Shown here: in pieces, positions 5,549 through 59,419 of the stretch
Numbering within the stretch: the stretch's first letter is position 1
Layout: each line of letters begins with the position of its first letter
Assembly (NCBI GenBank): GCA_930971385.1
Contig: CAKNGB010000001.1
Span: 3,670-67,669 of the forward strand
Length of the DNA stretch: 64,000 bases
Source: an uncultured Clostridia bacterium
Lineage (GTDB): Bacteria; Bacillota; Clostridia; Christensenellales; UBA1242
Direction of reading: 5' to 3'
Notes under the pieces: model-generated
Told to the model about the DNA's origin: nothing
Databases searched by the model: none
What the model saw: only the letters and a program-made list of their open reading frames with translations
Position numbers and translations under genes: made by a program

Positions 5549-5664
5549 GCGGGCGCAATAAAAAAGATTTTGCCCAAATGGCAGGTTGTTTAAACCAGCA
5601 CAAACAAAGGCAAAATCTTTTTGCTTGCAGGGCAAGCCCATGCATTGCATGGAATTGCGCCCGC
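5549..5664 (-). repeat. GC-rich four-way-junction (cloverleaf-like) palindromic element, family C copy 1
   Basis: Outer stem GCGGGCGCAAT (5549-5559) / ATTGCGCCCGC (5654-5664). It encloses three abutting hairpins: 14 bp AAAAAGATTTTGCC/GGCAAAATCTTTTT with a 34-nt loop (5561-5622); GCTTGC/GCAAGC (5623-5637); CCATGC/GCATGG (5638-5652). All pairs are Watson-Crick. The element ends on the first base of the metG stop codon. Strand is assigned only by analogy with copy 2. Confidence 0.6.
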
Positions 5665-23357: not shown

Positions 23358-23432
23358 GGTCTCGTGGTCAAGAGGTTAAGACACCGCCCCTTCACGGCGG
23401 TATCAGGGGTTCGATTCCCCTCGAGATCACCA
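23358..23432 (+). tRNA. tRNA-Glu (anticodon TTC)
   Basis: Hand-folded cloverleaf GGTCTCG/CGAGATC, anticodon stem CCGCC/GGCGG, T-arm AGGGG-TTCGATT-CCCCT, encoded CCA. The anticodon loop reads CCTTCAC, i.e. C rather than the near-universal U at position 33. Confidence 0.85.
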
Positions 23433-23440
23433 AAAAATTA

Positions 23441-23589
23441 GGACAGACACCAACATCGTTTAACGCGGGCACGGAAAACAAGTTTCCTAACCGCTACTAT
23501 GTTGGTTTCTCCGCCTAGTCCTCTTCCGCGTAGGTGATTTTCAATTTATGCTTGTCGGGCAAAGCCCTTCTTCAAGCAAAATTGAAAAT
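23441..23589 (+). ncRNA. unclassified structured RNA, family A copy 1
   Basis: Begins 8 nt after tRNA-Glu and ends before the terminator at 23632-23670. Module 1 is an extended hairpin: P1 23449-56/23499-506, P2 GCGG/CCGC 23465-68/23491-94, P3 GGAAA/TTTCC 23473-77/23483-87. Module 2 is the hairpin 23537-23589. It is homologous to 25935-26191 (minus strand) with compensatory changes. Confidence 0.6.
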
Positions 23590-23631
23590 TAATTAAGATA
23601 CATTTTTAATTACCAATATAATTATATAAGT

Positions 23632-23670
23632 AAACAAGTTCGAAAAGCATCGCCTTTTGCTTGTTTTTTT
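23632..23670 (+). terminator. rho-independent terminator of the tRNA-Glu / family A RNA transcript
   Basis: AAACAAG...CTTGTTT stem with inner AAAAGC atc GC(C)TTTT, followed by T7. Confidence 0.65.
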
Positions 23671-23674
23671 GTTT

Positions 23675-23845
23675 CACGACCAAACGCAACTCGCAAACGC
23701 TTTCGAGTTGGTCGTGACTTACGAGGTTTTGATTATAGTAAAGTTATGTAGGAATCGAACGGGCGGTAAAGAAAAGTTGCCGGTGTGCAAGTTTTCTCCG
23801 CCCCGGCGTGAAAGCGGAATAACTTAGTTGGACGGGTTACTAATG
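23675..23845 (-). ncRNA. GC-rich structured element immediately downstream of comFC (family B copy 2); candidate ncRNA
   Basis: Hairpin 23675-23716 (CACGACCAA..CAACTCG / CGAGTTGGTCGTG). Hairpin 23761-23803 (GGGCGG-AGAAAAgTTGC / GCAAgTTTTCT-CCGCCC). T-loop-like GTTCGATTCC on the minus strand (23751-23760). Collinear similarity to 18166-18263. Strand is tentative. Confidence 0.4.
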
Positions 23846-24649
23846 TTAAAGTTCAACATTTTCGTTTTCTTCCTTTTTTAATGCGTTTCTGGCAAGAGCG
23901 CACACAAAGATATTGTTTGCGTGTTTTGAAAGTATTTTCGCGCAGGTATTTAAGGTGGCACAGGTGGTTATGATGTCATCCACAATCAAAACATTTTTGT
24001 TTTTCACAAGCTCTTTATCTTTCAAATTAAAAACGCTTAAAAGGTTCTTTTGCCTTTCAAGATAATTTAAAGTTTTTTGTGATTTTGTTTCAGAAACTTT
24101 TTCCAAGGTTTCAAGGCACGGCAAGTTTAAAATTTTGGCAAGATTTTTAGCAAGGAGTTTCGATTGATTGAAACTTCTTTCTTTTTCTTTTCTTTTCGTC
24201 ATTGGCACATAGGTTATAAGGTCAATTTTCCAGCCCTTTATTTCTTTGGCAATAATTATTGCATAGCCTTTGGCAAGATACCGCTTATTGTCAGATTTAT
24301 ATGAAAGCAAACTTTTCCTTACTAAATCTTTATATAAAAAGGGTGCTCTTGCCTTTTTAAAATATCGCTTATTTTTTTGGCAGTGGTCGCAAATAACCGC
24401 TTCATTCCCTATCGGCTCGTCGCAAATTAAACATCTTTTTCCATCGTTTTTAGGCAATAATTTTTCACAATTAGAGCAATAAGGTTTCTCATAAAAGGAG
24501 GGGATGTCGCGCCCACAAAAAACACATTTAATATCATCAGGGAAAATTAATTTATTAAAAAAAATTGATATTTTCTTAAAAATATCATATTTTTTACGTT
24601 TTTTTTGAGTTTTTTCCTTATTTTTTAATGATTTTTTCATATTTTTCAT
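23846..24649 (-). CDS. comFC: ComF family protein (phosphoribosyltransferase domain, N-terminal CxxC zinc finger), paralog 1
   Basis: CVFCGR..CSNC..CLIC..CDHC zinc-finger cysteines and the PRTase motif VLIVDDIITTCAT. Confidence 0.85.
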   Translation of the reverse strand: MKNMKKSLKNKEKTQKKRKKYDIFKKISIFFNKLIFPDDIKCVFCGRDIPSFYEKPYCSNCEKLLPKNDGKRCLICDEPIGNEAVICDHCQKNKRYFKKARAPFLYKDLVRKSLLSYKSDNKRYLAKGYAIIIAKEIKGWKIDLITYVPMTKRKEKERSFNQSKLLAKNLAKILNLPCLETLEKVSETKSQKTLNYLERQKNLLSVFNLKDKELVKNKNVLIVDDIITTCATLNTCAKILSKHANNIFVCALARNALKKEENENVEL

Positions 24650-39854: not shown

Positions 39855-40193
39855 ATGGAAAAATTTTTGAGGCTTAATGAAAGAAATAGATATGAAATTT
39901 TATCTGTTTTGCCAGATGATAAGGTGATAAACAAACTTGCTCTTTACTTTCAAAACTTTTCCGACCAAACGCGGATAAAGATTTTATCTTTGCTTTCCAT
40001 TCGTGATATGTGCGTCAATGATATGTCGAATGTTTTGAAAATTAACCAGACCACCATTTCTCATCAACTTAAAACGCTGAAAGACCAAGATATTGTGGAG
40101 TATAAACGCGAGGGAAAGGTGCTTATCTATCGGCTGAAAGCGCCAGAGGTGTCGGAAATGATGATGTATGCTGTGAAAGTGACAGAAGGGTAA
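39855..40193 (+). CDS. ArsR/SmtB-family transcriptional regulator
   Basis: Winged-helix pattern FSDQTRIKILSLL...MCVNDMSNVL..NQTTISHQLKTLKDQDIV. AGGAG RBS. Divergent from the small-peptide gene. Confidence 0.85.
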   Translation: MEKFLRLNERNRYEILSVLPDDKVINKLALYFQNFSDQTRIKILSLLSIRDMCVNDMSNVLKINQTTISHQLKTLKDQDIVEYKREGKVLIYRLKAPEVSEMMMYAVKVTEG

Positions 40194-40283
40194 TAAGATA
40201 TATGGTCGAACCAAACACAATTTTAGTTATATTTGGGCAAAATAAATGTTAATACTTTTTTGCGTTGTGTTTGTATATATGGT

Positions 40284-40399
40284 GGGGCGAAGTTTTGCGG
40301 GCGTCAGCCCGCAGGCGTCCGCAAGGACGCCTCCTTTCTCGCACAAAAAAAGGTGGCTGTTTTTCTTTATAGAAAAGCGAGAAAGGAAAACTTCGCCCC
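40284..40399 (+). repeat. GC-rich four-way-junction (cloverleaf-like) palindromic element, family C copy 2
   Basis: Outer stem GGGGCGAAGTTTT (40284-40296) / AAAACTTCGCCCC (40387-40399). Three hairpins abut with no unpaired junction nucleotides: GCGGGC gtca GCCCGC (40297-40312); AGGCGTCC gcaa GGACGCCT (40313-40332); CCTTTCTCGC / GCGAGAAAGG with a 34-nt loop (40333-40386). All pairs are Watson-Crick. Confidence 0.6.
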
Positions 40400-40405
40400 A
40401 ATTCC

Positions 40406-40435
40406 TTGCAAAACACATATATAATATGTTATAAT
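40406..40435 (+). promoter_or_regulatory. queH promoter, probably giving a leaderless mRNA
   Basis: TTGCAA (40406-40411), 18-nt spacer ending in TGT (extended -10), TATAAT (40430-40435). The queH ATG follows exactly 7 nt later at 40443, with no RBS. Confidence 0.5.
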
Positions 40436-40442
40436 ATTTTCC

Positions 40443-40979
40443 ATGAGGCAAAAGATACTTCTTCATTCCTGCTGTGGTCCATGTTCCACGGTGTGCATAG
40501 AAAGGTTAAAAGATGACTACGATGTCACAGTTTTTTATTATAACCCAAACATCTATCCGCGTGAGGAATATGAAAAACGCAAAGCCGAGCAAAAGAAAGT
40601 TTGCGAGTTTTTTAACATTCCTGTGATTGATGGCGACTATGACGAAGAAAGTTGGCTTACTTATATAAAAGGTATGGAAACTGAGAAAGAGGGCGGAGCG
40701 CGCTGTGAAAAATGTTTTTATTACCGCTTATATAAAACCGCACTTGTTGCCAAAGAAAACAATTTTGACCTATTTGGCACAACCTTAACAGTAAGTCCAC
40801 ACAAAAGCACGCCGATAATAAACAAAGTTGGCAAAGAAATTGAAAAAGAGGTTAAAATTCCATATTTAGAGGAAAGTTTTAAGAAAAAAGACGGCTATTT
40901 AAGAAGCATAAACCTATCTAAAGAACTGTCATTATATAGGCAAAACTATTGTGGTTGCCGATTTTCAATAAGGGGATAA
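40443..40979 (+). CDS. queH: epoxyqueuosine reductase QueH (DUF208)
   Basis: LLHSCCGPCS N-terminal motif and the C-terminal YCGCRFS. Confidence 0.88.
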   Translation: MRQKILLHSCCGPCSTVCIERLKDDYDVTVFYYNPNIYPREEYEKRKAEQKKVCEFFNIPVIDGDYDEESWLTYIKGMETEKEGGARCEKCFYYRLYKTALVAKENNFDLFGTTLTVSPHKSTPIINKVGKEIEKEVKIPYLEESFKKKDGYLRSINLSKELSLYRQNYCGCRFSIRG

Positions 40980-57832: not shown

Positions 57833-59419
57833 ATGGAAAAGAAGAAAAATATTAAAGAAGAGAAAAAACAAGAAAAAACCACTAAAAAACAGCAAAAAAA
57901 TGCAAAAAAAGTGGAAAAAAGTGAAGAAAAGAACAAAAATAAGCATAGTTTTGTTTGGTTTATCTCAATTTCGGCGCTGGCAGTTGTTTGCCTTCTTGTT
58001 TGTCAATTCTTTTTCGAAAACGGACTGACCACAAATTCGAGGTTCTATGATAACACCAAAATCAATGGCATTGATGTTTCCAACATGACCATGGCAGAAG
58101 CGGAAAATGTGGTGTTAACGGATATGCTGTCGAACAGAAAAGATGTGGAAATTAATCTCACATCTGGTGATAAAAAGTGGACTTTGAAAGGCACAGATTT
58201 TGAAGTGACAAACAAAATTCAGCCATACATAAAAGAGATTGCATCATACGGCAAAACGGGGAATTTTTTTGATAACTATAAAAAATCAAAAGACATCAAA
58301 GAAAACGGAAAAAACTTTCAAATTTCCTATAAAGCAGTGCTTGGAAATTTGGAGGAAAAGATAGACGAGATTATTGAAGAGGTGGAAAGACCGCAAGAAG
58401 TTGCTAGCCTTGTTTTTTCGCCAAATGAAGAGAAAGTTTTTCATGTGGATAAAGGTAAAAGCAGTGTGACGGTTTTAAGGAATGAACTTTTCTCACAAAT
58501 CGATGAGCAACTCTCTTTGGGTAAAACTGCGAATGTGGAAATTCCTATTGTGGAAATTGAGCCAGAATTTGACGAAGAGGACTTGTTAAACAGTGTTGTT
58601 AAGCGAAGTGAGTTTTCCACTTCTTATTCCACTTCAGGTGCAGACCGCAAAAACAACGTGAAAAAGGCGCTTGAAAGTTTTAACGGACTTATTGTGGAAA
58701 GCGGGCAAACAATATCTTTTAATGAAACAACAGGTCCAAGAACGGAAGAAAATGGCTATAAAAATGCCCACATAATTTTTGACGGAGTTTATGTTGACGG
58801 TGTGGGCGGTGGAGTTTGTCAGGCTTCAACAACTTTATATAATGCTCTTCTTCTTGCTGACATTCAAATCGACCAAGTGTATCATCACTCGCTTCCTGCT
58901 TCCTATGTTCCACTTTCTTTTGACGCCATGGTGTCGGGGAACTATTCTGACCTTGTTTTCACAAACAATTTGGATAAACCAATTTACATCTTAACAAAAT
59001 CCGATGAAAACGAAGTGACGGTGGAAATTTATGGGCCAAGTTTAAATGGAGTCGAAATTAAAAGGCGTTCGGAACTTGTTAAAATTCTTCCACATAATGG
59101 CGACAAAATTGTGAAAGACACAAAAGGCGCATATTCCAATAAAATTCTTTACCAAGGAGAATTTTACCGAGTGAAATGGCCAAAAGAGGGATATGAAAGC
59201 AAGGGATATTTGCAATACTATAAAGACGGCGAACTTTTGGAAGAAAAAGAAATTCGCCATGACTACTATAAGGCGCAAGACGGGATTGTTATGGAAGGCG
59301 TGGAAGAACTTGGCGTGGGTATGAGTTTGCCAGCAAGTGAGGTTCAAATTTGCAGTCCGCAAAAAGTGACAAAACAGCATGAAGAAAATGCTAGGCAAAG
59401 ATTGGAAAAACAATTCTAA
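57833..59419 (+). CDS. VanW-family protein with an N-terminal membrane anchor
   Basis: VanW domain signature GVYVDGVGGGVCQASTTLYNALLLAD. Lys-rich N-terminus followed by a TM helix. The track start at 57815 is TTG; the first ATG is at 57833. Confidence 0.8.
   Translation: MEKKKNIKEEKKQEKTTKKQQKNAKKVEKSEEKNKNKHSFVWFISISALAVVCLLVCQFFFENGLTTNSRFYDNTKINGIDVSNMTMAEAENVVLTDMLSNRKDVEINLTSGDKKWTLKGTDFEVTNKIQPYIKEIASYGKTGNFFDNYKKSKDIKENGKNFQISYKAVLGNLEEKIDEIIEEVERPQEVASLVFSPNEEKVFHVDKGKSSVTVLRNELFSQIDEQLSLGKTANVEIPIVEIEPEFDEEDLLNSVVKRSEFSTSYSTSGADRKNNVKKALESFNGLIVESGQTISFNETTGPRTEENGYKNAHIIFDGVYVDGVGGGVCQASTTLYNALLLADIQIDQVYHHSLPASYVPLSFDAMVSGNYSDLVFTNNLDKPIYILTKSDENEVTVEIYGPSLNGVEIKRRSELVKILPHNGDKIVKDTKGAYSNKILYQGEFYRVKWPKEGYESKGYLQYYKDGELLEEKEIRHDYYKAQDGIVMEGVEELGVGMSLPASEVQICSPQKVTKQHEENARQRLEKQF

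Follow-up and report, generated by a model that had tools for sequence, protein, structure and literature searches.

A stretch of 64,000 nucleotides from an uncultured Clostridia bacterium (Christensenellales; UBA1242; GenBank assembly GCA_930971385.1, contig CAKNGB010000001.1, positions 3,670 to 67,669 of the forward strand; hereafter 'the window') contains, between the genes arsR and queH, a 116-base GC-rich element that forms a perfect four-armed junction (window 40284-40399). We found that this element belongs to a family of 12 dispersed intergenic copies within the genome and to a superfamily that extends across the genus. Members share a closing stem that encloses exactly three hairpins, lie preferentially at gene ends and are markedly better conserved than their surroundings, while their individual hairpins are flipped or replaced at the DNA level. 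We favor – with a probability of about one half – the interpretation that the element is a gene-end structural repeat, similar to the repetitive extragenic palindromes (REPs) and bacterial interspersed mosaic elements (BIMEs) of Proteobacteria, that caps, insulates or terminates transcripts.

A perfect four-armed junction between arsR and queH

The original prediction, made from the sequence alone, described a 13-bp closing stem around three abutting hairpins, with zero unpaired junction nucleotides and zero G-U pairs in the four helices. Our inspection agreed base for base. On the + strand, the 5' arm of the closing stem (40284-40296, GGGGCGAAGTTTT) pairs over 13 bp with the 3' arm (40387-40399, AAAACTTCGCCCC). 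Between these arms lie hairpin 1 (40297-40312; GCGGGC-GTCA-GCCCGC, a 6-bp GC stem with the tetraloop GTCA), hairpin 2 (40313-40332; AGGCGTCC-GCAA-GGACGCCT, an 8-bp stem with the GNRA loop GCAA) and hairpin 3 (40333-40386; CCTTTCTCGC / GCGAGAAAGG, a 10-bp stem with a 34-nt AT-rich loop). The loop of hairpin 3 itself contains a sub-hairpin, TTTTCT-TTAT-AGAAAA.

We folded the element with ViennaRNA and compared it with 200 dinucleotide-preserving shuffles. The four-armed junction was the minimum-energy fold in all settings tried: as RNA on the + strand (-70.1 kcal/mol, z -9.5), as RNA on the - strand (-67.5 kcal/mol, z -10.6) and with DNA parameters (-45.4 kcal/mol, z -9.5). The prediction had raised the concern that random GC-rich sequence of this size might fold alike; for the + strand RNA, 0/200 shuffles folded as well.

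Twelve diverged copies in a small genome

A BLAST search with the element against its own genome (a 1.05-Mb assembly with 36% GC) returned no match besides the element itself. Since the paralogs are too diverged for BLAST, identifying the family required a palindrome scan and a covariance model. A whole-assembly scan for perfect inverted repeats placed the family among the most stable folds per nucleotide, and a total of 12 copies was identified, 12/12 of them intergenic. MAFFT misaligned the two divergent copies; the covariance model, R1, was built from 10 canonical copies, with both window copies excluded. The fast cmsearch filters miss the arsR-queH copy, which was recovered only with filters off. 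In this mode R1 scored 51.2 bits at 40283-40400(+) (E 8e-12) and 61.8 bits at 5549-5664(-), and no other full-length match in the window exceeded 26 bits.

The second window copy (5549-5664, minus strand) abuts the metG stop codon and has the same helix order when read on its own strand. Consistent with the proposal that the two window elements share an architecture despite divergent sequences, their R1 scores and helix order assign them to one family. The prediction had also named further family members and orthologous conservation as things to look for, and both were found. Two of its remarks on the hairpin 3 loops did not hold up. The weak similarity between GTGGCTGTTT and GTGCTGGTTT corresponds to no motif common to the family's loops, in which we found neither a shared motif nor a promoter, and the 34-nt loop length has no special meaning, as loops in the family fall into two length classes, 31-38 and 59-69 nt.

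The family consensus consists of a closing stem with 5' arm GCGGGCGAAAGT and 3' arm CTTTCGCCCGC, hairpin 1 (CCATGC-nnn-GCATGG), hairpin 2 (GCGCGC-nnnn-GCGCGC) and hairpin 3 (TGTCTTTTTGC, a variable loop, GCAAAAAGACA). Copies neighbor unrelated housekeeping genes, including metG (named from Pfam) and, by reading of translations, spoIVA, murG, murI, a yebC-type gene, a sigma factor gene, an ftsQ-like gene and genes for surface proteins. Rfam had no match at the element, tRNA and tmRNA-like cloverleafs included: in the window only two tRNAs reached the gathering threshold, and a permissive search at the element yielded only far-sub-threshold chance matches.

Beside five copies we observed a flank module of ~45 nt (..TTTGCTTGTGCG..) that was not found apart from the elements and has no promoter in it. 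The module (..GTGTGAAAG..TTTAAAyTTTGCTTGTGCG..) accompanies the copies at C1:155370, C1:218480, C7:25831 and C2:267 and is inverted at C1:152547. It is conserved at two of the five copies in the sister metagenome-assembled genome (MAG) introduced below, and may be part of a longer ancestral unit.

Orthologs, empty sites and a genus-wide superfamily

A sister MAG, 'uncultured Clostridia bacterium BRZ_NS__bin95' (G041 = G108), has 11 of the copies at syntenic positions. The arsR-queH region is unassembled in this MAG, and its ortholog was taken from metagenome contigs 97% identical to the MAG's contig end. Ten metagenome contigs encode an identical ArsR, and the element is present in 10/10. Two of these contigs are identical to the window and eight are only 89-91% identical over 3.4 kb, among them the two that are 97% identical to the sister MAG contig end. 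The element shows 1-9 differences per 116 nt across the diverged lineages. Because all ten carry it, including those diverged by ~10%, the element is conserved across several species-level lineages. We observed no presence/absence polymorphism among 20 related contigs.

More distant congeners (~70% nucleotide identity) often still have arsR and queH adjacent, often with a spacer of 50-130 nt. Such a fold was present in 0/8 of the spacers fetched from them, and in these element-free congeners a queH promoter (TTGACA/TAAAAT) occupies the equivalent position. The empty spacers indicate that the element is an insertion in one sub-lineage rather than a conserved regulator of arsR or queH. In one congener, G063, the arsR-queH spacer is 560 nt long (L196, G063:C4:45430-46070) and contains a perfect hairpin, CCCCGAAAGTGACTTTCACTTTTGGGG, together with three copies of a ..AAAAGTTGTGGATGA.. 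unit, which suggests that different repeat families colonize the same spacer in different species.

To define the superfamily we ran a closing-stem pattern (GGGCGMA, 85-115 nt, TKCGCCC) over 154 genomes of the genus. Palindromic matches were found in G088 (HGM11351), G077, G078 (Candidatus Caccovivens faecavium ChiW6-1002), G063, G102 and G106, and a reversed-pattern control gave 0-1 matches per genome. Single chance-like matches within coding sequences (G083, G097, G136, G144, G154 and G102:C3) were left out of the element set. R1 recognizes nine members from five other congeners at 23-51 bits; an earlier R1 search of 40 relatives gave no match, probably owing to filtering, and it was the closing-stem pattern that later found members.

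Every one of the resulting 32 elements (20 fetched from congeners plus the 12 described here) consists of a closing stem and exactly three branches, and all 32 have perfect terminal inverted repeats in the form of a 9-13-bp closing stem. Elements are 105-146 nt long with a median of one junction nucleotide, and their junction helices contain 1146 Watson-Crick pairs versus 30 G-U pairs. The closing-stem ends are common to the sub-families while hairpin sequences are unrelated between them, so that GGGCGAA, the start of the closing-stem 5' arm, is the sole primary-sequence motif common to the superfamily. Helix order also varies: in the G088 sub-family the long hairpin is the second of the three instead of the third.

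Across 185,579 species, a 16-mer scan returned mostly chance matches; viral contigs gave no true match. One candidate link, between the GCGGGCGAAAG arm motif and Luteibacter or other GC-rich genomes, was rejected as coincidental, the repeats in those genomes being REPIN-like long hairpins. Luteibacter rhizovicinus LP_13_YM (NZ_SMCS01) has at least 35 copies of such a repeat (~140 nt, TGTAGGAGCCCGCTT-GCGGGCGAAAGCCAACG...), a simple imperfect hairpin that carries the GCGGGCGAAAG arm motif.

A conserved scaffold with replaceable hairpins

Between sister-species orthologs the helical scaffold is 97.6% identical (757/776), compared with 90.1% for the 200-nt flanks (with 356 gap columns) and 89.5% for the 3-kb loci. 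Hairpin variants are locus-specific and common to both sister species, and homogenization among paralogs (concerted evolution) therefore does not explain the conservation. On the strength of these alignments, we regard the constraint on the scaffold as real. The original prediction had argued that conservation of structure but not of sequence implies selection on the fold. The constraint in this argument stands; selection on an RNA fold does not follow, given that nearly all pairs are Watson-Crick, both strands fold, hairpins flip and paired arms change together.

Variation at the arsR-queH locus illustrates how the scaffold tolerates change. The hairpin 1 loop reads GTCA, GAAA, GGAA or GTTA in related lineages, always keeping G..A. 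Hairpin 2 has two alleles in the ArsR-identical contigs, an 8-bp stem with a GCAA loop and a 7-bp stem with a GAAA loop, which differ by the loss of one base from each arm. In contig L300, a C-G pair of the loop sub-hairpin has become T-A. Single uncompensated mismatches also segregate among related contigs. The hairpin 3 loop of this copy is nearly constant across related contigs; in the family as a whole these loops are AT-rich (15-42% GC) and were resized or replaced between orthologs at four loci.

Larger rearrangements are found at other loci. At the locus between rpsI and a sigma factor gene, the whole core is inverted between the colinear flanks of the two species, and the loop of the sister MAG copy matches the loop of another locus. 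Reverse-complemented loops sit on identical or near-identical stems, both in orthologs (ATGT/ACAT in L235 and L238) and in paralogs (TTC/GAA and TTT/AAA). The orthologs L234 and L237 are near-identical except for hairpin 2, which is entirely different in the two. Template switching during replication can both create and maintain hairpins (Monttinen and Loytynoja 2022, PMC8794818), and the hairpin flips and two-sided changes described above point to template switching at the DNA level.

The flanks of the arsR-queH copy behave differently. In related lineages (contigs L293-L301), the 90 nt upstream of the element (40194-40283) are replaced by a 46-nt version, and only the last ~28 nt of this flank (TTTTTGCGTTGTGTTTGTATATATGGT) are common. 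The upstream flank thus turns over much faster than the element and its promoter side.

Position at gene ends

Of 31 elements, 19 have a flanking stop codon no more than 10 nt away. If elements were placed uniformly in these spacers, 7.4 would be expected to do so, and a count of 19 was reached in 0 of 200,000 simulations. Either end of an element can face the stop codon, and some elements (L222, L228) fill the entire gap between convergent stop codons.

Terminator-like features occur in canonical copies and in the G088 sub-family. In canonical copies hairpin 2 is followed by TGTCTTTTTG, an arrangement flagged by the terminator scan. By eye, six of nine G088 copies have a core of an A-run, a hairpin and a T-run that resembles a bidirectional terminator; the scan confirms it for L228. 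Loops of the GNRA, GNNA and GAA types are frequent in the elements. Such loops stabilize RNA hairpins and DNA hairpins alike.

The arsR-queH copy lies 90 nt downstream of the stop codon of the gene for the ArsR-family regulator (39855-40193, + strand). A promoter-like site for queH (40406-40435, + strand; TTGCAA-18-TATAAT with a TG) begins 6 nt past the element, and queH itself, encoding epoxyqueuosine reductase, follows at 40443-40979 (+ strand). Pfam supports the identities of ArsR, QueH and MetG. This spacing confirms the earlier observation that the element ends 6 nt before the queH -35 box; a queH transcript started at the predicted promoter would not include it. A terminator scan of 40100-40500 found no intrinsic terminator-like site, and thus none between arsR and queH.

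A putative role in capping or insulating transcripts

Taken together, we consider a role at the end of the arsR transcript to be the most plausible function of this copy. According to this interpretation, the family would at one time have reached unrelated sites between genes, most of them immediately after a stop codon, and the element would now be fixed, kept by the host and under purifying constraint. Polymerase reading through from the upstream gene – here arsR, which lacks an intrinsic terminator of its own – would generate a transcript that folds as a very stable four-way junction. Once folded, the junction could define or protect the 3' end of the upstream RNA and shield the transcription unit that follows, in this case the queH promoter 6 nt past the element. 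Template switching and palindrome flipping at the DNA level would have produced both the flawless Watson-Crick pairing and the hairpin turnover, with purifying selection subsequently retaining the paired scaffold. A precedent comes from Escherichia coli, in which REP325 is a partial terminator and mRNA stabilizer (bioRxiv 10.64898/2026.03.23.713779).

Several observations weigh against this interpretation. No hairpin of the arsR-queH copy is followed by a U-run (T-run in the DNA). Orientation relative to genes is mixed, with ~8 sense and 4 antisense among the 12 copies. Among 18 co-directional cases the sense strand gives the better fold in 14, which is uninformative because ordinary post-stop spacers already have this preference in 64%. 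Three copies (C1:412150, C1:155370 and C1:218480) lie downstream of an ordinary terminator-like hairpin, judging their flanks by eye, and are equally conserved, which is a poor fit to an RNA 3'-UTR (untranslated region) role and leaves room for a DNA-level one. Nor did the analysis reveal a means of spread: no direct repeat that would represent a target-site duplication abuts any of the 12 copies, and searches for Y1 transposases, reverse transcriptases and integrases found no mobilizing enzyme for the family.

A bolder version of this idea is that selection acts on the shape of the four-way junction rather than on any sequence. The elements would then represent a distinct class of host-maintained gene-end devices that recurs across unrelated gut lineages and has its hairpins continually rebuilt by template switching. 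Such a device could be a new type of terminator or RNA-end cap that needs no factor and tolerates either orientation, or a DNA site akin to a Holliday junction that a dedicated protein reads. We put this forward only tentatively, as a possibility somewhat against the odds.

Alternative explanations

The elements could instead be purely selfish or neutral miniature mobile DNA, similar to miniature inverted-repeat transposable elements (MITEs), REPINs or GC clusters, with a fold that is a by-product of terminal inverted repeats and internal palindromes and brings the host no benefit. Many dispersed, lineage-specific copies in both orientations would be expected of such DNA, as would the empty arsR-queH spacers of congeners, the replaced and inverted copy whose loop matches another locus, and pairing that is symmetric between strands. 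Selfish sequences should decay, whereas the conservation of orthologous copies exceeds that of their flanks about fourfold. The lack of presence/absence polymorphism in 20 related contigs and the strong stop-codon bias also count against this explanation. The flanking TATATA motifs, suggested earlier as target-site duplications, lie 2 nt and 17 nt from the element without abutting it, and no copy shows such a duplication. A search for a partner transposase of the Y1 type was likewise without success. The only match to Y1 (PF01797) in the genome is a truncated IS200-type remnant (C4:80211-80447) that is not flanked by elements; Y1 genes were absent from G088, despite its nine or more copies, and from G077, G078 and G063, and G108 has only broken remnants. 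In the palindrome scan of the genome, no larger element enclosed by these arms was seen, and the 7-mer arm motif is common in coding DNA and so uninformative for tracing a related insertion sequence (IS). We regard a purely selfish or neutral nature of the elements as unlikely, though far from outlandish. The truncated IS200-type open reading frame (C4:80160-80560), the sole Y1 remnant of the genome, retains its HUH motif and tyrosine, lacks the N-terminus and carries an 84-nt direct duplication at its 3' end.

A second explanation dispenses with transcription altogether: an extruded or single-stranded junction, or the conserved GGGCGAAAG arms, may be bound or processed at the DNA level by a junction-binding or resolving enzyme, a recombinase or a replication factor. 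The folding of both strands equally well and also as DNA, the near-perfect junctions with 0-1 unpaired nucleotides reminiscent of an immobile Holliday junction, the retention of closing-stem ends across sub-families while all else changes, the flipped hairpins and cores, and the undiminished conservation of copies behind ordinary terminators all agree with it. We consider it rather improbable, as we have no candidate protein to link with the elements, a genome has only ~12 sites, arrays and integron-like context are absent, and the stop-codon bias and embedded terminator-like motifs point to transcription. Still more improbable is a strand-specific structured noncoding RNA, either a small or guide RNA acting in trans through the hairpin 3 loop or a riboswitch-like leader of queH. 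A conserved scaffold with a hypervariable loop, GNRA-type tetraloops on the canonical strand and compensatory changes are what such an RNA would show. Against it, Rfam gave no match, copies are bracketed by neither a promoter nor a terminator and occur in both orientations relative to genes, the element lies upstream of the queH promoter, congeners with adjacent arsR and queH lack it, and the order of the helices changes from one sub-family to another. Single wobble mismatches, counted by reading of the scaffold folds, show no strand bias either, with about five on the canonical strand versus four on the other, although so small a difference is uninformative. The related idea that the loops are acquired, CRISPR-like spacers or guides was rejected, as they had no significant match in 50,697 phage records or elsewhere in the genome. 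Finally, a GC-rich patch that folds by chance would account for a stable fold and nothing beyond that; z-scores of about -9.5 to -10.6, the failure of all 200 shuffles to fold as well, 12 paralogs, syntenic orthologs and a genus-wide superfamily make this probability negligible.

Comparison with known systems

The gene-end repeat that we favor most closely resembles the REP, BIME and REPIN elements of Proteobacteria. These are also GC-rich, palindromic, intergenic multi-copy repeats, present in both orientations, conserved by the host and free of target-site duplications. They are often found in 3' UTRs near stop codons, and a role of REPs in partial termination and mRNA stabilization has been proposed or demonstrated (bioRxiv 10.64898/2026.03.23.713779). 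In contrast to the Clostridia elements, a REP is a single imperfect hairpin of 20-40 nt that has a conserved tetranucleotide on the 5' side and occurs in hundreds of copies, often as inverted doublets, with a cognate single-copy gene for a RAYT (REP-associated tyrosine transposase, a Y1 HUH enzyme) that the repeats typically flank. The Clostridia unit is 105-146 nt long, has a closing stem and exactly three hairpins, and occurs in ~12 copies per genome with no RAYT found; its single hairpins give way to entirely different ones from one sub-family to the next.

Intrinsic (Rho-independent) terminators, the bidirectional kind included, resemble the elements in following stop codons directly, in lying between convergent genes and in their GC-rich hairpins; the hairpin with T-run of canonical copies and the A-run, hairpin and T-run core of the G088 sub-family are further points of likeness. 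In the elements, by contrast, the hairpin that looks like a terminator is only one arm of a four-way junction, enclosed with two further hairpins by a closing stem of 9-13 bp. The arsR-queH copy moreover has no T-run, some copies follow an ordinary terminator, and the elements make up a dispersed family of homologous repeats.

Bacterial MITEs and similar repeats (Correia/NEMIS, ERIC, RUP, BOX and bcr1) are likewise ~100-150 bp long, intergenic, species-restricted, bounded by terminal inverted repeats and predicted to fold, and they can be co-transcribed with neighboring genes (reviewed in PMC3184786, PMC2229807). Such repeats have target-site duplications, a related IS or both, and fold as one long hairpin or as loose multi-hairpin structures; for the Clostridia elements we found no duplication, partner IS or sequence similarity, and their four-way junction is strict. 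Yeast mitochondrial GC clusters (PMC4478555) are also GC-rich palindromic, hairpin-forming inserts in AT-rich spacers that make up lineage-specific families. They differ in being organellar, shorter and single-hairpinned, with target duplications in some classes and no such gene-end bias.

Integron attC sites are single bulged hairpins with R''/L''-L'/R' boxes and a GTTRRRY core, arrayed next to intI. The Clostridia elements end in GGGGCGAA.../...TTCGCCCC without GTTRRRY and are dispersed singly among housekeeping genes; the genome has four tyrosine recombinases. Retron msr-msd loci are distinguished by an adjacent reverse transcriptase, and no RVT_1 match exists anywhere in this genome. A structural analogy, and nothing more, is offered by the T-shaped terminal repeats of parvoviruses (flip/flop), in which an outer palindrome encloses smaller ones and the interior exists in two inverted orientations, as in the Clostridia elements. 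Parvovirus repeats are three-way junctions that serve hairpin-primed replication at the ends of linear viral genomes, whereas the Clostridia elements are chromosomal, internal and four-way, with no indication of a replication role.

The element thus fails the tests for REP-RAYT systems, classical MITEs, attC sites, retrons and Rfam families, which leaves it as a variant of the extragenic palindromes that belongs to no named family. A search of the full-text literature found no description of such elements.

Other repeats in the genome

At window 23430-23860, after tRNA-Glu and comFC, we observed a different structured repeat family. It lacks the GGGCGAA closing stem, so the structured repeats of this small genome belong to two or more unrelated families. 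A further palindromic repeat, ..GAAGTGAACCC / GGGGTTCACTTC.., contains the contig break between rpsI and the sigma factor gene (end of C7, ~59290-59410; C2:1-70). It interrupts the loop of the hairpin that forms the rpsI terminator; at this site the sister MAG has a plain terminator. Identical hairpin-forming segments of 65 and 75 nt are found at C1:178468-179502 and again at C1:189322-190356, with the same 10,854-nt offset, which indicates a large direct duplication, possibly of rRNA operons or of a duplicated island.

Significance for uncultured gut Clostridia

The bacteria considered here are small-genome, uncultured gut Clostridia known only from metagenomes, and almost nothing is known of how their transcripts end or are insulated. 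The present analysis documents a class of conserved elements that combines a rigid stem with exactly three hairpins, hugs stop codons and tolerates full hairpin replacement. Because assemblies break at the elements, which can also be mistaken for RNA genes, recognizing the family aids annotation. If the proposed role as terminator or stabilizer is correct, the element would represent a compact, orientation-tolerant insulator part, and the family would lend itself to studying how structured nucleic acids arise and are maintained through template switching. If the elements are instead read as DNA, they would point to a junction-recognizing activity that is not yet known.

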